A DNA stretch of 33,944 nt from a virus. Of the stretch, positions 2,255-27,668 are shown in pieces. Location of the stretch: IMG/VR virus record IMGVR_UViG_3300045988_039608, positions 1 to 33,944 of that record; one strand, given 5' to 3'. A program made the translations under genes and the position numbers. Numbering within the stretch: position 1 is the first letter of the stretch; the number at the start of each line of letters is the position of its first letter. The notes under the pieces were generated by a model. That model saw only the letters and a program-made list of their open reading frames with translations. It searched no databases and was not told the DNA's origin.

Positions 2255-2676
2255 CAGGAAGGGAATATTTAAATCAGATACGTGATACTGATTTGAATAT
2301 CAAATGTAAGGAAAGAGAAGTGTTAAGGCTGCAACAAGATATAATGTATCTGCAAGCAATTGACTATAGCAAAGACATTGTAAGCGGAGGGCAACCGATT
2401 ACCTTTGAAGATAAGATAGCAAACATTGATGCACTATCAAATGAACTAATGAGAGAATGGAGTTCATACCTAAGAGAAAGGGAAAGAGCAAGATTTCTTA
2501 TTAATGCCATACCTAGTTCAAAACAAAAGAGCGTACTGATTGATAGATATGTTAATGGGCATACATGGGAAAAGGTGGCAGCATTAATTGGCTGTTCAGT
2601 GCAAAACATTCATAACCTACATAAAAGAGCAATTAGAAACTTTGAAGAAATTTTCAAAAAGGTTGATAGTATTTGA
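2251..2676 (+). CDS. Sigma-70 region-4-like / DUF1492-type phage transcriptional regulator (probable late-gene activator)
   Basis: C-terminal HTH SVLIDRYVNGHTWEKVAALIGCSVQNIHNLHKRAIRNFEE. It sits immediately before the packaging and late operon. Confidence 0.6.
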   Translation: MTGREYLNQIRDTDLNIKCKEREVLRLQQDIMYLQAIDYSKDIVSGGQPITFEDKIANIDALSNELMREWSSYLRERERARFLINAIPSSKQKSVLIDRYVNGHTWEKVAALIGCSVQNIHNLHKRAIRNFEEIFKKVDSI

Positions 2677-2701
2677 CTATGAATTTATGGGATACTATAT
2701 G
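2673..2701 (+). promoter_or_regulatory. Candidate promoter (TTGACT-17-TATATG) at the end of the regulator gene
   Basis: -35 at 2673-2678, 17-nt spacer, -10 at 2696-2701. The -10 is imperfect. Confidence 0.25.
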
Positions 2702-2760
2702 TGGGCATGGATGAAGAGAACACTTTCAACAAGCCTCCTAGAAAAACTACACACTATTAA

Positions 2761-2812
2761 GGACTACATCATACACAGGTCGCACAACACAGTATGATGC
2801 GGTCCTTTTTAG
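2761..2812 (+). terminator. Rho-independent terminator between the early block and the late operon
   Basis: GGACTACATCATA (2761-2773) pairs with TATGATGCGGTCC (2793-2805), one mismatch and one wobble, followed by TTTTT. Confidence 0.6.
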
Positions 2813-2829
2813 TTTATAAGGGGTATTTG

Positions 2830-3123
2830 ATGAAGCATAAAAGAATTACATCCAAGAGAACGATACAAGAAGTTCGCAAGACATATTGTGAAATATGCGG
2901 ACAAAAAACAAATATAGAACCACATCATATTAATACACGTGGAAGCGGTGGCGGAGATATTAAGGAGAACTTAATACAACTCTGTACACAATGCCATATC
3001 AATACACATAGTGGCCAATATCCAACCAAAGATGATTGCTTGAATAAAGTAGCAGAGCGTGAAGGTATTACATATGATGAAGCATATGTAATTAATCGTA
3101 GAGCAATGGGATATGATGTATGA
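2830..3123 (+). CDS. HNH endonuclease
   Basis: CEICGQ...EPHHINTRGSGGGDIKENLIQLCTQCHINTHSG (HNH/His-Me finger). I chose ATG 2830 because the longer ORF from 2794 overlaps the terminator hairpin. Confidence 0.75.
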   Translation: MKHKRITSKRTIQEVRKTYCEICGQKTNIEPHHINTRGSGGGDIKENLIQLCTQCHINTHSGQYPTKDDCLNKVAEREGITYDEAYVINRRAMGYDV

Positions 3124-3311
3124 CTAGGATATGTTGTAATAGGGATAGATGCTTAAATAATAAATATGGCATCTGCACTGCAGATACAATTGAATATGAA
3201 GGGATATGTAAAAGCTACATTACAACTAATGATGCAAGAAAACCCAATTGTGGATTATGTAGAAGAACGCATGGGAAGTTAAAGCGTAATAGTAATATGG
3301 TATTGAAGTAG
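3120..3311 (+). CDS. Small Cys-rich protein (DUF1540-like spacing)
   Basis: ATGA overlap with the preceding stop. ICCNRDRCLNNKYGICTADTIEYEGICKSY has the C-x4-C...C...C arrangement. Confidence 0.4.
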   Translation: MTRICCNRDRCLNNKYGICTADTIEYEGICKSYITTNDARKPNCGLCRRTHGKLKRNSNMVLK

Positions 3312-3321
3312 AGGTGATGCA

Positions 3322-3717
3322 ATGCTAAAAGCATGTAGCTATTGTGGAGGAATACATGAAGGAGAATGTCCACATAAACCAAAGCGCAACTACAAGCAGG
3401 AGCATGCAAATGCATCTGATAGCAGAAAGAAAGAACGGAAGTTCAGAAGCAGTGTTGAATGGCAAGACTGCAGAAGAAATATATTAGATCGTGATAAGCA
3501 TCTGTGTAGACTATGCTTGCACGAAGATAATTATATTAGTGTAGGACAACGCTTAGATGTTCATCACATTGAGCCATTACATGAAGCATGGAAGAAACGT
3601 ACTGATGAAAAGAACTTGATTACATTATGTAAGATGCATCATCACAAAGCGGACCATGGAGAATATAAGAGGGAGTACTTGAAAAAAATAATTAGTACCC
3701 CCCCTACCATAAAATAA
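3322..3717 (+). CDS. HNH endonuclease (terminase-associated type)
   Basis: CRLC...DVHHIEPLHEAWKKRTDEKNLITLCKMHHHKADHG. It lies directly upstream of the cos-like intergenic region and terS. Confidence 0.8.
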   Translation: MLKACSYCGGIHEGECPHKPKRNYKQEHANASDSRKKERKFRSSVEWQDCRRNILDRDKHLCRLCLHEDNYISVGQRLDVHHIEPLHEAWKKRTDEKNLITLCKMHHHKADHGEYKREYLKKIISTPPTIK

Positions 3718-4326: not shown

Positions 4327-6016
4327 AAAACATCCTGCCTATCAGTACGCAATGGACGTTGCAAAAGGGACTATCAATGCACCAAAGTATGTAAAATTAC
4401 AGGTTAAAGAGTTCTTAAATATTGCAAATAATAAGGATAGACAGTACATTATTGATGATAATAAGGTACGAACTATTGGAGAATTATTGAAATTATTAAT
4501 AATGCCTAAAGGGTTAAAGGCGAATATCACAGTATATGATGCCATGGCAGGGTTCCAATGGTTCTTTATAACTGCAATATTATGTACAGTTGAACGTAAC
4601 AATAAAGACAAAAGACGATATGAAAACGCAATACTTGAGATATGCAGAAAGAATGGCAAGACATTTATAATTGCTATTCTTTTTATTTTGCTATTTTTCA
4701 TGGAGCCTAAGTTTTCTAAGTTCTATTCTGTAGCGCCAGACGGCTCATTATCACGTGAGATAAAAACAGCAATAGAAGAAATATTGCGTAGTAGTCCTGC
4801 CATGCTAGGAAAGATGAATGGCAAGGAAAAGTTTAAAATGCTACGTGATTATATTCATTGCAATATTACAGATAATAGATATATTCCGCTTAACTATTCA
4901 ACAGGGCGACTTGACGGTAAATTGCCAAGTGTATTTCTAGTAGATGAAACAGGAGCCTTACCAAATACATATGCAATTGAAGCAATGCGTTCTGGGCAAT
5001 TAACAATACTAAATAAACTAGGATTTATAATTTCCACTAAATACCCAACTTTAAACAACCCTTTTGAAGATGAAGTTGATTATGCTAAGCGTGTATTAAA
5101 TGGCGCAGTAGATGATGATAAAGTATTTGCATTGTTATATGAGCCAGATGATACAAAAGGTTGGGCAACGAATGATGAAGTATTAGAGCAAAGCAATCCA
5201 TTGGCTATTGAAGTAACAGAAATCATGGAAGATTTGAAAGCAAAACGGCAAGTAGCTATTGAGATTGAAAGTAAGCGTGAAAACTTTATTACAAAACACT
5301 GCAACATCATATATAGCGGTGCTGGCAGTGAAAGCTTTGTAAATGTTGCTGACTTACAAAAAGGTGCAGTAGATCATATTGATTGGAATGGACGTGAAGT
5401 ATTCCTTGGTGTTGACTTAGCTTTATCTACAGATAACTGTGCTGTAGATATGGTTGCATATGACGAGGATGAGGGCAAAGTATATTGGGATGCAATGGCG
5501 TTTATTCCAGAAGATAGGGTGGACGAAAAATCAAAACTAGAACGCATTCCATATCGTGATTTTATTAATGCTTGCTATTGCATTGCGTGTGGCAATCGTA
5601 CTGTAGATTATGGGGCAATCGAACGCTACATAATGCAAATAGAAGCTAAATATGGGGTTACTGTAATGGGTATTGGCTATGATAGGTGGAATGCCTTATC
5701 AACCGCTCAAAAGTTAGAAGATGCTGGCTATACAATGGTAGAAATTAAGCAACATTCTAGTGTATTACATCCTGCTACTAAATGGCTTGCAGAGTTAGTT
5801 GCAGAAGGCAATTTAGTGTATGAAAAAGGGAATAAGTTACTAGAAATTAACTTTGAAAATTCAAGATGTGTATATGACACAAATATGAACCGCTATGTAA
5901 ATAAAAAGAAATCAAGGGGCAAGGTTGATATGGTAGTGGCAGGGATTAATGCTATGTATCTGTTACACCAAAACTACATGCTAAATAGCGCATTAGATTG
6001 GGTAGTACAAATGTAG
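4319..6016 (+). CDS. terL: Terminase large subunit (Terminase_1-like)
   Basis: 565 aa. Walker A-like RKNGKTF and Walker B-like SVFLVDE. GTG start overlaps the terS stop. Confidence 0.85.
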   Translation: MDKKHPAYQYAMDVAKGTINAPKYVKLQVKEFLNIANNKDRQYIIDDNKVRTIGELLKLLIMPKGLKANITVYDAMAGFQWFFITAILCTVERNNKDKRRYENAILEICRKNGKTFIIAILFILLFFMEPKFSKFYSVAPDGSLSREIKTAIEEILRSSPAMLGKMNGKEKFKMLRDYIHCNITDNRYIPLNYSTGRLDGKLPSVFLVDETGALPNTYAIEAMRSGQLTILNKLGFIISTKYPTLNNPFEDEVDYAKRVLNGAVDDDKVFALLYEPDDTKGWATNDEVLEQSNPLAIEVTEIMEDLKAKRQVAIEIESKRENFITKHCNIIYSGAGSESFVNVADLQKGAVDHIDWNGREVFLGVDLALSTDNCAVDMVAYDEDEGKVYWDAMAFIPEDRVDEKSKLERIPYRDFINACYCIACGNRTVDYGAIERYIMQIEAKYGVTVMGIGYDRWNALSTAQKLEDAGYTMVEIKQHSSVLHPATKWLAELVAEGNLVYEKGNKLLEINFENSRCVYDTNMNRYVNKKKSRGKVDMVVAGINAMYLLHQNYMLNSALDWVVQM

Positions 6017-6031
6017 AAAGGAGGTGAGAAA

Positions 6032-7282
6032 TTGAGTTGGGTTAAAAGTTTATTTGGATATGAAGTTAGGGAAGAGCAAGTATTAAATGAAAACTCATTC
6101 ATTGATACTGCAGATGATATTGATTTAAACCTTCCAAGCTATGATGCAACTACACGAGTAACAAGGCAGCAGGCTTTATCTGTGCCTGCAGTAGCAAGTG
6201 CATTATTTCTTATATCTGGGATTATTGCTGGTATTCCTGTACGAATGTATAAACGTGAAGGAAATACAATTGCAGAAATATTAGATGATGAACGGATTAA
6301 GTTGTTAAACATTGAAACTAATTCTATTCTTGGGGCATATGAAACAAAGCAAGCCATGATTAATGATCTAATTATGGAGGGGGCATGCTACTGTTATATT
6401 GGTAAGAATGGGAACAATGCAGAGTCATTACAGTACTTACCTAAACATAGAGTAAGCCTGTTAGATAACGGAAAGCTTATTGATAGACAAATATATTATT
6501 TAGTTGACGGAAACTATTATGATAATTTCAATATTATGAGTGCCGTGAGGAATTGTAGTGACGGAGTTCATGGGCGTGGATTATTAGATGATAATGCTAT
6601 GCATATTTCCAGTATGTACAATGCGCTTGTATATGAGAATGGAGTAATCAGCAAAGGTGTACGGAAAGGCTTCCTAAAATCGGAAGGAAGATTGACTGTA
6701 AAGGCCTTGGAAGCACTAAAAAAAGCTTGGAGATATATGACTTCTAAGCTTGGAACAAGTGATGTAATAGTACTGAATAAAGGGATTACATTTGAAAGTG
6801 CAGATAGTACAGCGGTAGAAAATCAACTTAATGAAAGTAAACAGACAAATGCGGACTTAATTTATAAAATATTTGGATTTACAGACAAAACTTTTATAGA
6901 TGAGAAAGCATTTAATATTTTTGTTAAGACAACGATAATGCCAATAGTAAACTGCTTCATTGAAGCTATTAATAGATCCTTATTGTTAGAAACAGAAAAA
7001 GGAAGCTACTATTTTAACTTGGATATGAACGATTTATTAAAAGCTGATATGTTGACACGCTTCAATGCCTATAAAACAGCACTTGAAAGTAATTGGATTA
7101 ATGTTGATGAAATCCGTAAGCGTGAAGATTTATCACCAATGGGTATTGATTTTGTGAGCATGAATTTAGCGAATGTATTCTATTACCCAAAAACTAAGAA
7201 AGTTTACACACCAAATACAGGTGCATTTGGGGATTTGACTACATTAAAAGCAGAGAAAGGAGGTGAGAATAGTGAAAGTTGA
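6032..7282 (+). CDS. Portal protein (HK97-family-like)
   Basis: 416 aa immediately after terL, with a TTG start preceded by AAAGGAGGTG. It sits in the portal position ahead of protease and capsid. Confidence 0.8.
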   Translation: MSWVKSLFGYEVREEQVLNENSFIDTADDIDLNLPSYDATTRVTRQQALSVPAVASALFLISGIIAGIPVRMYKREGNTIAEILDDERIKLLNIETNSILGAYETKQAMINDLIMEGACYCYIGKNGNNAESLQYLPKHRVSLLDNGKLIDRQIYYLVDGNYYDNFNIMSAVRNCSDGVHGRGLLDDNAMHISSMYNALVYENGVISKGVRKGFLKSEGRLTVKALEALKKAWRYMTSKLGTSDVIVLNKGITFESADSTAVENQLNESKQTNADLIYKIFGFTDKTFIDEKAFNIFVKTTIMPIVNCFIEAINRSLLLETEKGSYYFNLDMNDLLKADMLTRFNAYKTALESNWINVDEIRKREDLSPMGIDFVSMNLANVFYYPKTKKVYTPNTGAFGDLTTLKAEKGGENSES

Positions 7283-21452: not shown

Positions 21453-21768
21453 TCTGACATCAGTAAAAGGTGAATTTATTACTTTCGTAATTGGATATAG
21501 TGAATTGATAGATGAAAGTGATTTATTTGCATGTGTTAGAAAGTATCCTTGGGATGAAGAGTATATAGCGAAATTTGATATAACAACGTCTACAGAAGAA
21601 CTAGCAAGCGAAGAAAAATGCAAGATTACACTGGTGCTTGATACAAATAAATTACAGTTTGGTAGTTATATGTATGATGTATTTATATGGGCAGGGGATA
21701 AACCTGTGAAATGTTTAGTTGAAGGTCATATTAATATTCATGAAGGAATTAGCAACAGGGGGAAATAA
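21433..21768 (+). CDS. Hypothetical structural-module protein
   Basis: ORF 21424..21768. ATG 21433 is better spaced from the GAAGAGGG RBS. Confidence 0.45.
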   Translation: MLPVKHNLTSVKGEFITFVIGYSELIDESDLFACVRKYPWDEEYIAKFDITTSTEELASEEKCKITLVLDTNKLQFGSYMYDVFIWAGDKPVKCLVEGHINIHEGISNRGK

Positions 21769-21769
21769 A

Positions 21770-22825
21770 ATGAGCGTAATCAATATTTATGTAAACGATG
21801 AAAACAAAGTTAATGTTAAAGACGATACACAAATTATTAAGATTAAAGGAGATAAAGGAGATCCAATGCGTTATGAGGATTTAACTCCAGAACAATTAGA
21901 GGCTTTAAAAGGCCCTAAAGGTGATAAGGGAGAAAATGGTAAACAGGGACCTAAGGGCGAGCCATTTAAGTACACAGATTTTACTGAAGAACAATTAGCT
22001 GCTTTAAAAGGCGAAAAAGGTGAAACTGGTGAAATGCCTAAAATCCCTAATACACTACGCCTTTTAAAAGAAAAAAATGTTTATTTAACTGACGATAACT
22101 TAGACACTGTATTAACTACAGTTTTGAATAGAATAAATGAAGGGATGAATTTCCTTTATGACTACGATAGTATTAAAAATGAATATCCATTTACAGTAGA
22201 TCAGTTTAACGACGGCGACGAAAACATCACAGTACACGGCTATAATCACTTCAAAGTTCAGATCGCAAATGAAGAACCTGTAGAAATCATCGATAATAAA
22301 GCTATCGTACCAATCCCTAAGAATACTGGCGATTTCATCAACGTTAAATATATCAACTATTTAGGCGATGTAGTTGAAACTAAAAACGTAGAAAAGGTTA
22401 AAGAAGATAATACTCCGGCTGTAATTTATCAAGAAAATAATAATCCTAATATGAAACTTAGTGTAAAAGGTACTAAAGCAGTACTTGAATTTATTCATGG
22501 TGGGCGCAACTCTTTAAGAAGAAATACCTTGAATCCTGTACAAAATAAAGTAAAACGCCTAATTATCGATTTAGCCAACGTTGATAGAATCAATGAATAT
22601 GTATCCCTTCCATTCGTACCGGAAAAAATCCAAATTATTAACTATAAGGCTAATAATTTTTATCCTGACTTTCAGGGCGATTATTACGGCGTTGTCAAAA
22701 TTGTATCCGATATGCCTGTTGCATATCACACTTTAAACAATGACGGCGAATATGAAGTATCTACTTTAAATGGCAAAAACTTAACATTTGGCGACAATAG
22801 TATTTACGTTAACGACGCATTATAA
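21770..22825 (+). CDS. Collagen-like-repeat tail fibre / receptor-binding candidate
   Basis: ATG 21770 follows AGGGGG. It has Gly-X-Y runs (KGDKGDP, KGPKGDKGENGKQGPKGEP, KGEKGETGE) and a globular C-terminal domain. Confidence 0.6.
   Translation: MSVINIYVNDENKVNVKDDTQIIKIKGDKGDPMRYEDLTPEQLEALKGPKGDKGENGKQGPKGEPFKYTDFTEEQLAALKGEKGETGEMPKIPNTLRLLKEKNVYLTDDNLDTVLTTVLNRINEGMNFLYDYDSIKNEYPFTVDQFNDGDENITVHGYNHFKVQIANEEPVEIIDNKAIVPIPKNTGDFINVKYINYLGDVVETKNVEKVKEDNTPAVIYQENNNPNMKLSVKGTKAVLEFIHGGRNSLRRNTLNPVQNKVKRLIIDLANVDRINEYVSLPFVPEKIQIINYKANNFYPDFQGDYYGVVKIVSDMPVAYHTLNNDGEYEVSTLNGKNLTFGDNSIYVNDAL
21848..22035 (+). repeat. Collagen-like G-X-Y segments with a duplicated Y-x-D-(L/F)-T-x-EQL-x-ALKG-x-KG-x-x-GE unit
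   Basis: RYEDLTPEQLEALKGPKGDKGE aligns with KYTDFTEEQLAALKGEKGETGE. Confidence 0.7.
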
Positions 22826-22866
22826 ACAAGAAAGTTAAAAATGAATAATGTAAGAAAGGAGTGCCT

Positions 22867-23196
22867 ATGTGGACATGGCAATTTGAATTAAATGACATCT
22901 TAACCACACTTACAATTGTAGGTGTGGTTGCAGGTGCAGGATATAGGCTTTTGATTATTCCATTACTTCAACAACTAGACTCACAACGCATGCAAGATAA
23001 TCTTATATTTCAAGAAAAATGGGGTGTTCTTACTGACACTCTTAAAGATTTAAAGGATGAAATTAAATTATCACGTGCAGAGCGCATTAAAGCTGAAAGC
23101 AAGCAAGTATTGCTGTCTGCAAAGGTTGAAGCATTAGAAGTACGTGTTGAGGATATAAGGGGGGAATTACATGAACACACATCCAAAACTCATTAA
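22867..23196 (+). CDS. Membrane-anchored coiled-coil protein at the start of the lysis cassette (N-terminal TM helix)
   Basis: ATG 22867 lies 5 nt after AAGGAG. ILTTLTIVGVVAGAGYRLLIIPLL is hydrophobic, followed by a heptad-like charged helix. Confidence 0.55.
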   Translation: MWTWQFELNDILTTLTIVGVVAGAGYRLLIIPLLQQLDSQRMQDNLIFQEKWGVLTDTLKDLKDEIKLSRAERIKAESKQVLLSAKVEALEVRVEDIRGELHEHTSKTH

Positions 23197-23503
23197 TTCA
23201 ATTAAGAACTCTTATAATTCAATAAGAATAGCCAACATTCATCCTACAGGGATGTGGGCAACAAGGGCGCTAGTACTAACAATGCTAGTGCCTATTTTAT
23301 TGGTAGTGGTGGAATACATAATGGTATTTATCAAAGGATATGTTACAGAAGATATGAATAAGTTGATTAATGTAGGGATAAACATTATAGATCATATCTT
23401 CATTCCTTCTGTTCTTACTGCATTAGTAGGATTCCTAGCATTATGGATAGATAAAGATGGCAATGGTATACCAGACCAATTAGAAAAGGAGGATAAACGA
23501 TGA
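23171..23503 (+). CDS. Putative holin (two TM segments, charged C-terminus)
   Basis: RALVLTMLVPILLVVVEYIMVFI and IFIPSVLTALVGFLALWI are hydrophobic, and the tail is EKEDKR. It lies directly upstream of the amidase with overlapping stop/start. Confidence 0.6.
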   Translation: MNTHPKLINSIKNSYNSIRIANIHPTGMWATRALVLTMLVPILLVVVEYIMVFIKGYVTEDMNKLINVGINIIDHIFIPSVLTALVGFLALWIDKDGNGIPDQLEKEDKR

Positions 23504-24018
23504 AAGTATTTATTAATCCGGGACACGATATTAACTTAGACAGTGGGGCGGTTAATCCTGTATACGGTACTCGTGAATGCGATGTAGCACGTGATGCAGG
23601 CAAAATGCTAGCACGCTATCTCGAAACAGCAGGATGTGAAGTACGTACTCTTCAAGATGATGATTTAGGGCTAGTATGTTCTGAATCTGATTCTTGGGGA
23701 GCAGATATATTTGTGTCCCTTCATTGCAACGCTTTTAATACGCAAGCTAGAGGTACAGAAACTTTGTACAAGTCCTTTAATGGGCAACGATTAGCAAACG
23801 ATATTCAAAGTCAAATCATTCGCAGCATTAACACCGTAGATCGTGGTGTTAAGAAACGTGATGACCTTTGGGTGCTAAATGGTACAGATGCAACAGCAGT
23901 TCTTGTAGAAATGGCATTCATCGATAACGAAGATGACCATGCTATGCTTACGAACGATTTAGACACTATCGTTCGTGCAATCGCTAGAGGGATTACCGAC
24001 TACGTAGGAGGACAATAA
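23500..24018 (+). CDS. N-acetylmuramoyl-L-alanine amidase endolysin (Amidase_3-like), catalytic domain only
   Basis: MKVFINPGHD...GAV, LHCNAF...ARGTE and VLVEMAFIDNEDD motifs. At 172 aa there is no room for a wall-binding domain. Confidence 0.8.
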   Translation: MKVFINPGHDINLDSGAVNPVYGTRECDVARDAGKMLARYLETAGCEVRTLQDDDLGLVCSESDSWGADIFVSLHCNAFNTQARGTETLYKSFNGQRLANDIQSQIIRSINTVDRGVKKRDDLWVLNGTDATAVLVEMAFIDNEDDHAMLTNDLDTIVRAIARGITDYVGGQ

Positions 24019-24419
24019 TGTATGAAAAGTACAAAAGTGTATTTGATAGCACTCGCAACCGCTATATTCTTATCGGTGGTATTGTGTTGCTCGTCTGCCT
24101 TTGCATCGGATATATCTTCATACAACCAAACAGAGGGGACTATAACGATACCATTAACACAGTGGAACGAATTGAAAAGCAACAACGAGAAAGCCTTGAA
24201 CTTAATAGAAGCATCCAGCGTTCCATTGAAAGAAGCACAGAACTTAGTCATGAAGCAAAAGAACGAGTTGATCGAAGCACACAATACAATCAACAAATTG
24301 GAAAACGAATTGATGAAAGCCAAAATTCAATCAATGAAGCAAGAAGTAACCTTAAACGAAATGCAGAACTCTTTGACAGAATTGAAAGGGCAAATAGAGA
24401 ACGACAAGAAAACCATTAA
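24018..24419 (+). CDS. Frame A: N-terminal TM anchor plus coiled coil (i-spanin-like topology)
   Basis: TAATG coupling to the amidase stop. RNRYILIGGIVLLVCLCIGYIFIQP is a TM helix with positive charge on the inside, and the rest is Arg/Glu-rich helical sequence. It is overlapped almost entirely by frame B. Confidence 0.4.
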   Translation: MYEKYKSVFDSTRNRYILIGGIVLLVCLCIGYIFIQPNRGDYNDTINTVERIEKQQRESLELNRSIQRSIERSTELSHEAKERVDRSTQYNQQIGKRIDESQNSINEARSNLKRNAELFDRIERANRERQENH

Positions 24420-24495
24420 ACGATTGCGGATGCAACGCAACTTATCTCAAGTATTAAGTGGTGGTGCAATTATAGGGGTAGCGTTCAAACATTAA
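24022..24495 (+). CDS. Frame B (+1 relative to A): signal peptide plus heptad coiled coil plus short C-terminal hydrophobic tail (u-spanin-like topology)
   Basis: MKSTKVYLIALATAIFLSVVLCCSSAFA/SD is signal-peptide-like (AxA). LENELMKAKIQSMKQEVTLNEMQNSLTELKGQIEN shows a heptad pattern. The C-terminal tail is VLSGGAIIGVAF. It ends closer to the operon terminator than frame A does. Confidence 0.5.
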   Translation: MKSTKVYLIALATAIFLSVVLCCSSAFASDISSYNQTEGTITIPLTQWNELKSNNEKALNLIEASSVPLKEAQNLVMKQKNELIEAHNTINKLENELMKAKIQSMKQEVTLNEMQNSLTELKGQIENDKKTIKRLRMQRNLSQVLSGGAIIGVAFKH

Positions 24496-24555: not shown

Positions 24556-24600
24556 GGCCTACTAACTTAGAAAATATCTAGGTTGGTAGGCCATTTTTTG
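24556..24600 (+). terminator. Strong rho-independent terminator ending the late/lysis operon
   Basis: GGCCTACTAAC (24556-24566) pairs with GTTGGTAGGCC (24582-24592), followed by TTTTTT. Confidence 0.8.
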
Positions 24601-24623
24601 TTTATAAAATTATAAATAAATGC

Positions 24624-24652
24624 TTGCATATAACACGAAAACGTGTTATAAT
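24624..24652 (+). promoter_or_regulatory. Near-consensus sigma-A/sigma-70 promoter of the moron operon (TTGCAT-17-TATAAT)
   Basis: -35 at 24624-24629, 17-nt spacer, -10 at 24647-24652. Confidence 0.65.
24630..24649. promoter_or_regulatory. Perfect palindromic operator ATAACACG-AAAA-CGTGTTAT filling the promoter spacer
   Basis: 8-bp arms read directly from the sequence. It overlaps the spacer and the first 3 nt of the -10. Confidence 0.6.
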
Positions 24653-24679
24653 GTAGACATAGGGAAGGAGGTGAAACCA

Positions 24680-24772
24680 TTGAAAAGGAAGAAAATAAAA
24701 AAGTGGCTACCCTTAGTAATAGCTATCATCCAACTAGCAACTGCGGTGATAACGGCGATTAATAAGGAGTAA
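24680..24772 (+). CDS. 30-aa basic/hydrophobic membrane peptide (type I toxin-like)
   Basis: AAGGAGG RBS lies 8 nt before TTG 24680. It encodes MKRKKIKKWLPLVIAIIQLATAVITAINKE. It is below the ORF-track cutoff. Confidence 0.45.
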   Translation: MKRKKIKKWLPLVIAIIQLATAVITAINKE

Positions 24773-24802
24773 CCACAGGGGCTCGAAAGAGCCCCACTCT
24801 TC
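24700..24802 (-). ncRNA. Hypothetical antisense RNA to the 30-aa peptide mRNA (ends approximate)
   Basis: Inferred from the minus-strand promoter. The 5' end would carry the GC hairpin, and a T-run (CACTTTTTTATTTT on the minus strand) lies near 24700. There is no direct evidence of transcription. Confidence 0.3.
24778..24795. other. Stable GC hairpin GGGGCTC-GAAA-GAGCCCC (no flanking T-run on either strand)
   Basis: Perfect 7-bp stem with a GAAA tetraloop, 6 nt after the peptide stop. Confidence 0.7.
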
Positions 24803-24808
24803 CTAACT

Positions 24809-24838
24809 ATTATAGCAATGGGATAGATATGATTTCAA
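24809..24838 (-). promoter_or_regulatory. Convergent minus-strand promoter TTGAAA-18-TATAAT pointing back into the peptide gene
   Basis: On the reverse complement the -35 TTGAAA is + strand 24838-24833 and the -10 TATAAT is 24814-24809. Confidence 0.5.
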
Positions 24839-24915
24839 GATTAACTTTAATCATTAGTATTATTGCCTTTGTATTATCTGTATATAATCTATTAGTAATA
24901 TTAGGAGTATTATAA
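24829..24915 (+). CDS. 28-aa very hydrophobic peptide (doubtful)
   Basis: It encodes MISRLTLIISIIAFVLSVYNLLVILGVL and has TAATG coupling to the next gene. The RBS is weak and the start overlaps the -35 of the antisense promoter. Confidence 0.25.
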   Translation: MISRLTLIISIIAFVLSVYNLLVILGVL

Positions 24916-25106
24916 TGAAACTAGAGGATGTAATGACTACACAAGAGGCTGGAGAAAGATGGAATGTACCAGCTGATTCAATTAAGCAATGCTGCTTAAA
25001 GAGATATGCAAATAAACAATTTACCGATGATGAAGCTAGAAAATCGGGAAAGAATTGGCTTGTAACCCGTCAAGGTATGGAAAGGCTATATGGTAAAGAA
25101 GTATAA
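24915..25106 (+). CDS. Small HTH DNA-binding protein (excisionase/MerR-like HTH_17 type)
   Basis: MTTQEAGERWNVPADSIKQCCL...KNWLVTRQGMERLYGK pattern. AGGAG RBS. Confidence 0.6.
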   Translation: MKLEDVMTTQEAGERWNVPADSIKQCCLKRYANKQFTDDEARKSGKNWLVTRQGMERLYGKEV

Positions 25107-26473: not shown

Positions 26474-26506
26474 AGCCACTGCACATGATGCGGTGGCTCA
26501 TTTTTT
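26474..26506. terminator. Bidirectional intrinsic terminator shared by int (-) and the moron operon (+)
   Basis: 9-bp stem AGCCACTGC / GCGGTGGCT (one G-T wobble), with an A-run upstream and a T-run downstream. Confidence 0.75.
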
Positions 26507-27668
26507 ATTTATTTGCAAGTACTTTACCCATATTAGTAATTGCTGCATTTACTTCCTGTTTCATTTCATCTGTAACATGAGTATATATAGCAAGTGTAGT
26601 ACGTGGCTCATTGTGACCAACACGTTCCATAATTGCTTTTAAAGGGACATTGGACTCTGCAAGAATAGATATATGAGTATGTCTAAATGTATGTGTACTT
26701 ACTGGTTTATGAAAACCAAGTTTTTTTATAGTCCTATTTACATAGTGTAGATCATATGGCAAGCCACCGTCTGTTACAAATATATATCCTAGGTCAACAA
26801 ACTTTGATTTCCATAGGCGTCTTGCTTGATTTGCAGTAATAAAATGATTAATGATTTGTACTGCCCTAGCATCTAGCTTTACTTTACGGATAGAATGAAC
26901 ATTCTTTGGGGGTAAACGCATAGATGCATCTGCAAAGCTACCACGATTAGACAGAGTAGCGTTTATATCAATTTCAGCATTTTCAATGTCATAGTCTTGA
27001 GTGCGGAGGGCAACCATTTCACCAAATCTAAGACCAGTTAAAGATTGAAATTCACATAAGAGGGATACATGATGATTAATTTTATCTAATTGTGTAAGTA
27101 AATCTTTTAGTTCGTCTTTAGTTAGGAATTTAGAACGCTGCTTTTTAACATGATCTACATTAGCCACAGGCTTTTGTAGTTCAATATTATCTAAGAATGA
27201 AATATCACGAATATACTCCATGCGCCTTGCATACTTCAATGATTGCCTAATAAGACTAAGAGCAAGCTTAGTATAGTTATATGAATATTGGCAGGCGAAT
27301 TTATCAAAGGTACTTTGGATAATGTAAGGTGATAACTTAGATAATAATATATCAGTAGGGAACCATTTAATAACCTGCTTATGTAAATTATCCATACTAT
27401 ATTGAGTAGATGATTTTCTAAACGCACGCTTTGACTCTAAATATTCAGATATAACATCATTCAATGTCATATCCTTGGCAATGTCCGTATTAGTGGCCAA
27501 GTCAATTTTCTTTTGTAATTCAGCCTGTGCAAGCTTGTATGCTTGCCTACTGTTAGAAGTATAAGTGACGGATACTCTTTTTGTTTTACCACTGTATGTA
27601 TCTGTATAGCGTTCTTGAAATTTATATTTAGTAATACCAGCTTTAGTGGTTATAGTCTCAACCCACAT
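26505..27668 (-). CDS. int: Tyrosine recombinase / phage integrase
   Basis: 387 aa. C-terminal HTFRHTHISILAESNVPLKAIMERVGHNEPRTTLAIYTHV (HxxR ... catalytic Y). N-terminal SAM-like/arm-binding region. RBS GGAGG. Confidence 0.9.
   Translation of the reverse strand: MWVETITTKAGITKYKFQERYTDTYSGKTKRVSVTYTSNSRQAYKLAQAELQKKIDLATNTDIAKDMTLNDVISEYLESKRAFRKSSTQYSMDNLHKQVIKWFPTDILLSKLSPYIIQSTFDKFACQYSYNYTKLALSLIRQSLKYARRMEYIRDISFLDNIELQKPVANVDHVKKQRSKFLTKDELKDLLTQLDKINHHVSLLCEFQSLTGLRFGEMVALRTQDYDIENAEIDINATLSNRGSFADASMRLPPKNVHSIRKVKLDARAVQIINHFITANQARRLWKSKFVDLGYIFVTDGGLPYDLHYVNRTIKKLGFHKPVSTHTFRHTHISILAESNVPLKAIMERVGHNEPRTTLAIYTHVTDEMKQEVNAAITNMGKVLANK

Follow-up and report, generated by a model that had tools for sequence, protein, structure and literature searches.

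Two almost completely overlapping genes ending the lysis operon of a Veillonella-type phage as a candidate lipoprotein-independent spanin equivalent

We describe and analyze a pair of same-strand genes, here termed A and B, that close the lysis operon of a viral contig, IMG/VR record IMGVR_UViG_3300045988_039608, and that read almost the same DNA in two different frames. The whole stretch of 33,944 nucleotides (nt) was analyzed and constitutes the window to which all coordinates refer; it has a GC content of about 35% and corresponds to a temperate phage or prophage of Veillonella type. Frame A is opened by the ATG at 24018 and frame B by the ATG at 24022. Comparative analysis of the pair makes it very likely, bordering on secure, that the segment 24018-24495 is dual coding, and suggests, as the explanation that best accommodates the observations as a whole and that we consider probable with some reserve, that the two genes provide a functional equivalent of the spanins that does not depend on lipoproteins.

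The two start codons lie 4 nt apart behind one Shine-Dalgarno sequence, the TAA stop codon of the preceding amidase gene (24016-24018) overlaps the A start as TAATG, and the 398-nt overlap places B in the +1 register of A. A preliminary description, made from the sequence without database searches, had reported these positions, the 5- and 9-nt spacings to the Shine-Dalgarno, the TAATG coupling and a frame relation like that of Rz1 to Rz in phage lambda, all of which were correct throughout. Its further observation that no comparable same-strand overlap exists elsewhere holds among window open reading frames (ORFs) of at least 80 amino acids (aa), where no second same-strand overlap of like length was found.

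The second half of the region (24141-24419) contains 47% A and 18% T, and the preliminary description had accordingly cautioned that one frame might be open by chance in T-poor DNA. That explanation is ruled out by shuffling, by codon redraws and by a systematic avoidance of T. When 24141-24419 was shuffled, a given frame stayed open in 0.1% of trials and both frames in none of 20,000, and all 18 stop codons of the native segment fall in the third forward frame. In a further test the amino-acid sequence of one protein was kept while its synonymous codons were resampled 20,000 times according to the codon usage of the phage. With the B protein fixed, frame A remained open for a mean of 22 codons and reached 133 codons in 0/20,000 draws; in the reverse test, with the A protein fixed, frame B was fully open in 0/20,000. 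Shuffling only the synonymous codons of the gene itself yielded P values of 0.001 (A) and 0.096 (B). Wherever a B codon could end in T before AA, AG or GA, the T would create a stop in frame A, and T is used at 0 of 22 such codons in the window, against 56% at the equivalent T-possible sites of other window genes; pooled over relatives, it is used at only 7 of 1,638. Both frames are hence open beyond the expectation from composition and codon usage.

The 107-aa ORF on the opposite strand (24000-24323, minus) was evaluated as a third gene and rejected, as it carries 1.7 stops per relative and is not conserved. It is a chance ORF, a by-product of the unusual composition of the region, and serves as an internal negative control.

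Database homologues have been called in both frames, 3,047 in frame A and 2,552 in frame B, and those with names derive from Veillonella or 'Caudoviricetes sp.'. Gene callers annotate one frame per record, choosing either about equally often, so that one of the two proteins is missing from every record containing the pair. We retrieved 89 close loci (from Veillonella parvula, V. dispar, V. denticariosi, Veillonella metagenome-assembled genomes and IMG/VR), 87 of which were usable. Both frames are open and begin with the ATGnATG start arrangement in 86 of these 87, and in the lone exception (L007) both are broken. B is always 157 or 158 aa long, while A measures 127/128, 133/134 or 160-162 aa. 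Within this length polymorphism (24417-24419; L003-L089), the step from 133 to 161 aa was traced to a switch from ATT to ATC that is synonymous in B and deletes the TAA of A. The resulting tail is of low complexity, and synonymous diversity in B rises past codon 133 in all sequences; the extra tail of A appears to be unconstrained.

The 75 distinct sequences among these loci align without gaps except for one 3-nt indel. Within the overlap, nucleotide diversity is 0.265 at B third positions (A first positions), 0.129 at B second positions (A third) and 0.109 at B first positions (A second). Beyond A codon 133 the corresponding values are 0.46, 0.07 and 0.18, the normal pattern of a single gene. 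Given this peak of diversity at its third position, frame B is certainly coding. The synonymous sites of B are at the same time constrained exactly over the extent of A: B-synonymous diversity is 0.36 in the overlap versus 0.55-0.63 in the three lysis genes upstream (hol111, tm110 and the amidase gene) and 0.46 in hth63 (n=14). As a control the amidase is less than ideal, its protein being too strongly conserved, although its synonymous diversity is still normal.

Selection on each frame was quantified with an OLGenie-style count of dNN/dSN and dNN/dNS, using as controls the same relative frame of four neighbouring single-coding genes from the same loci. B has a dNN/dSN of 0.28 and A a dNN/dNS of 0.65 (95% confidence interval 0.48-0.90), as compared with 1.50, 0.94, 1.74 and 1.43 in the control genes. 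We further constructed a null model in which only B is coding, by preserving the B protein alignment, the first and second B codon positions and the tree structure, and permuting third positions within each column (200 permutations). This null produces 8.2 frame-A stops per sequence versus 0.09 observed, and an A protein identity of 0.626 ± 0.007 that never reaches the observed 0.700 (exceeded in 0/200 permutations). The preliminary description had proposed aligning relatives and assessing selection frame by frame, noting that a single conserved or open frame would speak against an overlapping pair. What emerges is purifying selection in both frames together with lowered synonymous change in the overlap, and frames that are both open in the close relatives as well as in the eleven subfamilies described next.

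A search of 1.8 billion representative proteins with a B profile recovered 59 clusters at 50% identity, all with the same layout: a signal peptide carrying a small-x-small cleavage site, a TIxVPLxxWNxLK motif, a long heptad region, a basic KRLxRQRNxW segment and a C-terminal hydrophobic segment ending in K or R. Full-length members span 144-177 aa. DNA could be obtained for eleven subfamilies (WIN, L090, L101, L128, L151, L170, L175, L206, L209, L210 and L211). In 11/11 an A-like ORF of 117-167 aa, with an N-terminal transmembrane (TM) segment and a charged helix, overlaps the B-like ORF, which is always in the +1 register. Identities between subfamilies range from 0.17 to 0.46 for A and from 0.21 to 0.57 for B. 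In nine representatives each frame is improbably open given the protein encoded by the other (P <= 0.003, mostly < 2e-4), and, whichever of the two is taken as the main frame, identity in the alternative frame exceeds a main-frame-only null; z lies between 3 and 8 for most pairs and is 1.1 for the weakest. We conclude from this openness and excess identity that two separate proteins have very probably been maintained since before the family diverged to about 25% identity. The two distant groups outside these nine keep both frames as well, and in L151 a 42-nt insertion is open and helical in both.

The arrangement of the starts is conserved along with the frames. Eight subfamilies have their start codons 4 nt apart, as ATGnATG, TTGAATG or ATGGATG; ATGnATG or TTGAATG stands 5-7 nt past a Shine-Dalgarno in 7 of 9 subfamilies, and the same is seen in L211/L212. 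In this arrangement the Shine-Dalgarno lies 5-7 nt before the A start and 9-11 nt before the B start. Two subfamilies, L206 and L210, have an NTGTG start overlap instead; at L206:5001-5005 and L210:1501-1505 the codons take the form TTGTG or ATGTG, B starting first and the GTG of A following 2 nt later, and the +1 register is kept. The L170 group has the B start 40 nt into A, behind an AAGGAG of its own. With one Shine-Dalgarno serving two starts 4 nt apart in different frames, each initiating ribosome would make either A or B.

A few public assemblies contain chimeric ORFs that join the N-terminal TM segment of A to the C-terminal part of B (P0245, P0263 and L204:2392-2976). P0245 displays a 1-nt deletion (CGAACC to CGACC) and the L204 assembly contains N; the chimeric ORFs are probably indel or assembly errors.

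These observations bear on readings in which the region makes a single protein. Were only B a gene, frame A would owe its openness to the A-rich, T-poor codons of a coiled coil, a view that can appeal to the classic third-position diversity excess and stronger constraint of B, to the T-poor region and to the habit of gene callers of annotating one frame per record. It is nonetheless very unlikely, because A closes in 20,000/20,000 codon redraws and in 99.9% of composition-preserving shuffles, T is avoided at 1,631 of 1,638 stop-creating codons across relatives, the A start and open frame persist in 11 subfamilies, A identity surpasses the B-only null within and between subfamilies, and B-synonymous diversity is lowered only under the A overlap. 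The converse, that A is the gene (PHROG 18860, GenBank 'T2SS protein M') and B a by-product, is less credible than any other reading we considered: A does have the sole strong PHROG match (E = 1e-45) and 3,047 database proteins called in its frame, but the diversity peak falls at the third position of B rather than of A, B has a dN/dS of 0.28, frame B closes when the A protein is fixed, B identity exceeds the A-only null (z 3.5 to 7.9), and B forms 59 clusters with conserved signal peptide, motif and C-terminal anchor. Programmed ribosomal frameshifting, which would join the A N-terminus to the B C-terminus in one fusion protein and for which the chimeric ORFs could be invoked, is scarcely more plausible; the chimeras are rare and accounted for by a 1-nt deletion or an N-containing assembly, and B has its own start and signal peptide in all subfamilies. 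A conserved slippery site was not seen, though none was sought. In the L170 group the separate internal Shine-Dalgarno indicates that B is initiated independently and not by frameshifting.

Protein A is, according to sequence-based and structural prediction, a type II inner-membrane protein. Its residues 1-15 are basic and precede a TM segment at about 16-35 (nt 24063-24122), within a hydrophobic stretch (14-38) that follows K and R residues. AlphaFold2 (AF2) models two helices, at 12-35 and at 39-132, the latter continuous over 94 residues, with a predicted confidence (pLDDT) of 83.5 that rises above 90 over residues 70-125. The earlier assignment of a positive-inside TM helix followed by a charged helix, in the manner of an inner-membrane spanin (i-spanin), is supported by both the sequence segments and the model. 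This topology is conserved in nine subfamilies, and the A-like ORFs of L210 and L211 show it too. A matches phrog_18860, which is unannotated; GenBank labels some frame-A proteins 'T2SS protein M'.

Protein B begins with a signal peptide (residues 1-28, nt 24022-24105; helix 3-21) with a predicted signal peptidase I cleavage site, AFA|SD, conserved across the family as x-F-A|S/Q/A and followed by the conserved motif TITIPLTQWNELK. In the AF2 model a disordered mature N-terminus leads through this motif into one 109-residue helix (45-153), with which the C-terminal hydrophobic anchor (L141-F155, nt 24442-24486) merges before a final KH. The mature protein comprises about 129 aa, almost all helical, and shares with A a hydrophobic periodicity of 3.5 residues. 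In nine of nine subfamilies B has a C-terminal hydrophobic stretch (15-19 residues, closed by K, R or H), which corresponds to the C-terminal TM segment expected of a unimolecular spanin (u-spanin).

We considered whether B is a lipoprotein and rejected this: position 22 alternates among C, G and A (VVLC, VVLG, VVLA), and the strict lipobox [LVI][ASTVI][GAS]C is present in 7 of 177 family members. As this cysteine is not conserved, the lipoprotein signal that defines outer-membrane spanins (o-spanins) and u-spanins is missing. B thus lacks the N-terminal outer-membrane lipoprotein signal of a u-spanin. It likewise lacks the signal peptidase II lipobox of an o-spanin, and is not a proline-rich protein of about 40 aa with a periplasmic cysteine; nor does it bring, as the overlapping partner of an i-spanin should, a conserved lipobox cysteine. 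No conserved periplasmic cysteines occur in either protein across the family. Of the preliminary view of B, the AxA-type signal peptide, heptad helix and C-terminal tail are upheld, while the u-spanin identity holds for topology only.

Homology searches provided little further information. Searching 50,697 deposited phage genomes with blastn and tblastn (using the region, A, B and two distant B relatives) returned no real match, and a Bacillus phage match at E = 6e-3 was discarded as spurious. For A and B, nothing beyond sub-threshold coiled-coil noise came from Pfam, NCBIfam, a PDB sequence search or Foldseek against BFVD. For A, the best match to an Rz-like PHROG is phrog_739 at E = 8e-4, with nothing above cut-off in Pfam or NCBIfam. 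The likeness to spanins suggested beforehand does not, therefore, extend to the sequence level, where no homology to known spanins was significant in PHROG, Pfam or NCBIfam.

The pair directly follows the endolysin gene in all loci examined, the lysis-cassette position of an i-spanin. Depending on the phage, the preceding endolysin is of the Amidase_3, amidase_2-like, GH25 or peptidase M15-like type, and the adjacent holins also differ, Phage_holin_4_1 being among them. Position after the endolysin and independence from endolysin and holin type are expected of spanins. The endolysins are single-domain enzymes, as is usual for phages of diderm hosts. The family has been sampled from oral, gut and rumen environments.

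LolA/LolB homologues have not been found in any Negativicutes genome (PMC5007114), and V. parvula has no identified outer-membrane lipoproteins or Lol homologues (PMC10665443). Spanins, in contrast, whether two-component or unimolecular, are all defined by a lipoprotein signal for the outer membrane (PMC6139136). No plausible lipobox ORF was detected in or near the lysis block, and the window holds no canonical spanin candidate. Our search for literature linking Negativicutes phages and spanins found no paper, nor are spanins mentioned in a comparative study of 485 Negativicutes prophages. A host without Lol or known outer-membrane lipoproteins, together with a window without canonical spanin, makes a lipoprotein-independent spanin equivalent the most likely interpretation of the pair.

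In the mechanism we put forward, A would insert into the inner membrane by its N-terminal TM segment, N-terminus inside, and extend into the periplasm as a helix of about 14 nm. B would be exported, cleaved by signal peptidase I and held by its C-terminal TM segment, with a helix of about 16 nm. The free N-terminus of processed B would bear the most conserved motif of the family, T-I-x-V-P-L-x-x-W-N-x-L-K, which would be the likeliest contact with the outer membrane or with the OmpM tether. Acting after holin and endolysin, the two proteins would carry out the last step of lysis without an outer-membrane lipoprotein. Membrane topology, any interaction between A and B and a role at the outer membrane are all aspects that we infer. 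A function in lysis is likely from the genomic context; that this function is specifically to disrupt the outer membrane is close to an even call. More tentatively still, and with doubt slightly outweighing confidence, the pair may represent a new outer-membrane-disrupting lysis class of diderm Firmicutes, perhaps also of other Lol-less diderms, that dispenses with a lipid anchor and engages the outer membrane or OmpM through the B N-terminus.

Several points weigh against a spanin equivalent encoded by two overlapping genes. At the coding level, dNN/dNS taken alone beats the column-permutation null modestly (0.653 versus 0.721, P about 0.015), this null being over-conservative for that ratio because the first- and second-position patterns it keeps would themselves be shaped by selection on A. 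Production of the A and B proteins is deduced from sequence, and their function is assigned from gene position and topology only. Neither has significant similarity to spanins; Rz-like PHROG matches stand at E ~1e-3 or weaker, as for any protein with a TM segment and a coiled coil. No signal for outer-membrane targeting is recognisable in B, and a basic KRLRxQR lies on the predicted periplasmic side of its C-terminal anchor, which is unusual for a stop-transfer segment. The predicted anchors of both proteins lie in the inner membrane, which leaves any contact with the outer membrane unexplained. The most distant subfamilies have a GC content of 39-50% and come in part from rumen, and a restriction of the family to diderm hosts is unproven.

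Some of these points would fit equally a pair of real genes with a different role, be it in lysis timing (as antiholin or holin partner), in endolysin tethering or activation, or in a prophage membrane function such as superinfection exclusion. Predicted inner-membrane anchoring of both proteins, neither with an outer-membrane signal, the absence of homology to spanins and a location at the border between the lysis block and the lysogeny/moron region all speak for such a role, which we deem unlikely though far from negligible. Against it, the pair shares a Shine-Dalgarno, overlaps the endolysin gene stop-to-start and is located upstream of the operon terminator, a coupling and position that imply late expression with the lysis genes. 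Endolysins from four unrelated families and holins of at least two types occur with the pair, which speaks against a specific partner among them, and the window offers no alternative candidate for outer-membrane disruption. 

The spanin-equivalent interpretation can be set against known systems. Like lambda Rz/Rz1 and embedded spanins, the pair comes last in the lysis cassette, after the endolysin, with the second gene in the +1 register of the first; A has the layout of an i-spanin (N-terminal TM segment and long periplasmic helix or coiled coil), and both proteins carry export or membrane signals. In lambda, Rz1 is an insert of roughly 60 codons; here B equals A in length and covers about 85-100% of it, and the two starts lie only 4 nt apart on a single Shine-Dalgarno. 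Unlike Rz1, B is neither a lipoprotein nor proline-rich and has a C-terminal TM segment; there are no conserved periplasmic cysteines, and homology does not rise above chance. B resembles the T1 gp11 u-spanin in its N-terminal export signal, periplasmic domain, C-terminal TM segment, lack of periplasmic cysteines and place in the lysis cassette. The u-spanin, however, possesses a lipobox with its cysteine, which B does not, and B is always paired with A; moreover, the periplasmic domain of gp11 is predicted to be rich in beta-strands, while that of B is one long alpha helix. The arrangement may consequently be described as an embedded-spanin-like architecture at near-complete overlap, combining an i-spanin-like partner with a partner of u-spanin topology that is not a lipoprotein.

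Other parallels concern expression, overlap and shape. In the lambda S105/S107 dual start, too, one ribosome-binding region serves two close starts and gives rise to a pair of lysis proteins whose ratio depends on initiation, but the S starts are in frame and produce near-identical proteins, whereas A and B are unrelated proteins in different frames. The long same-strand overlaps of phiX174 (B in A, E in D) likewise encode functional proteins in both frames. They belong to tiny single-stranded DNA genomes under size pressure, while the present pair resides in a tailed double-stranded DNA phage (a 34 kb window, with related viral contigs mostly of 30-50 kb), overlaps nearly completely for both partners and gives two membrane-targeted helices. 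With class I viral fusion subunits B would, in the proposed layout, have in common a cleaved N-terminal tip, a heptad helix, a basic/aromatic membrane-proximal region and a C-terminal anchor.

How phages of diderm Firmicutes cross the outer membrane has not been described, and their hosts lack the lipoprotein pathway that every known spanin needs. A and B supply a concrete and widespread candidate, with more than 2,500 database homologues per frame, and V. parvula is genetically tractable. The overlap is also unusually complete, with some 400-470 nt read doubly over 85-100% of both genes and persisting to about 25% protein identity.

The features of the locus are collected in Table 1. Among them, the 110-aa protein with multiple TM segments is probably the holin, because it lies before the endolysin and contains hydrophobic segments.

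Table 1. Coordinates of the lysis block, the A/B pair and the integrase gene in the window
Feature	Coordinates	Strand	Evidence and remarks
'hol-like' protein, 111 aa, N-terminal TM segment and coiled coil	22861..23196	+	phrog_8369, E = 2e-11; first gene of the lysis block
Multi-TM protein, 110 aa	23171..23503	+	phrog_27828, E = 1e-50, function unannotated; pre-endolysin position, hydrophobic segments
Endolysin, N-acetylmuramoyl-L-alanine amidase (Amidase_3), 172 aa, single domain, no wall-binding domain	23500..24018	+	Pfam PF01520, E = 5e-35; phrog_435 endolysin, E = 7e-62
Shine-Dalgarno GGAGGA common to A and B	24007..24012	+	5 nt to the A start, 9 nt to the B start
Gene A, 133 aa, predicted type II membrane protein	24018..24419	+	Open frame; selection tests; phrog_18860, E = 1e-45
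Gene B, 157 aa, predicted signal peptide, long helix and C-terminal anchor	24022..24495	+	Open frame; selection tests; homologue family
Strong intrinsic terminator ending the lysis operon, 16-bp stem (24556-24592) followed by a T-run	24556..24600	+	
Integrase	26505-27668	-	ORF list/domain search

Several neighbouring features were noted in the course of the analysis. Downstream of the lysis-operon terminator, the interval 24620-24800 contains an ORF of about 30 aa that starts with TTG at 24681 after GGAGGTG and encodes KRKKIKKW and then a hydrophobic helix. It possesses a separate sigma-70-like promoter (ttgcat-17-tataat), and a GC hairpin follows it; from its sequence, it looks like a small membrane peptide of the moron type. 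At 24831-24917, a 28-aa ORF that is almost wholly hydrophobic (MISRLTLIISIIAFVLSVYNLLVILGVL) ends at the start of an HTH_59/excisionase-like gene (24915-25106). Between the lysis block and the integrase, the segment 25204-26122 encodes a 154-aa SocA/Panacea-domain protein (Pfam E = 2.7e-17) overlapped over 89 nt by a 180-aa ORF with a weak phrog_8366 match, a probable toxin-antitoxin pair of the Panacea type. Upstream of the lysis block, a tail-fibre-like protein (21719-22825) contains G-x-y repeats of collagen type (KGDKGD...GPKGDKGENGKQGPKGEP); close counterparts of it are nearly absent from related loci, consistent with a swapped host-range module. In the L206 locus (2256-3566 and 5520-6359), a faint RVT_1 match among the tail genes may point to a diversity-generating retroelement, and a radical-SAM gene directly follows the A/B pair.

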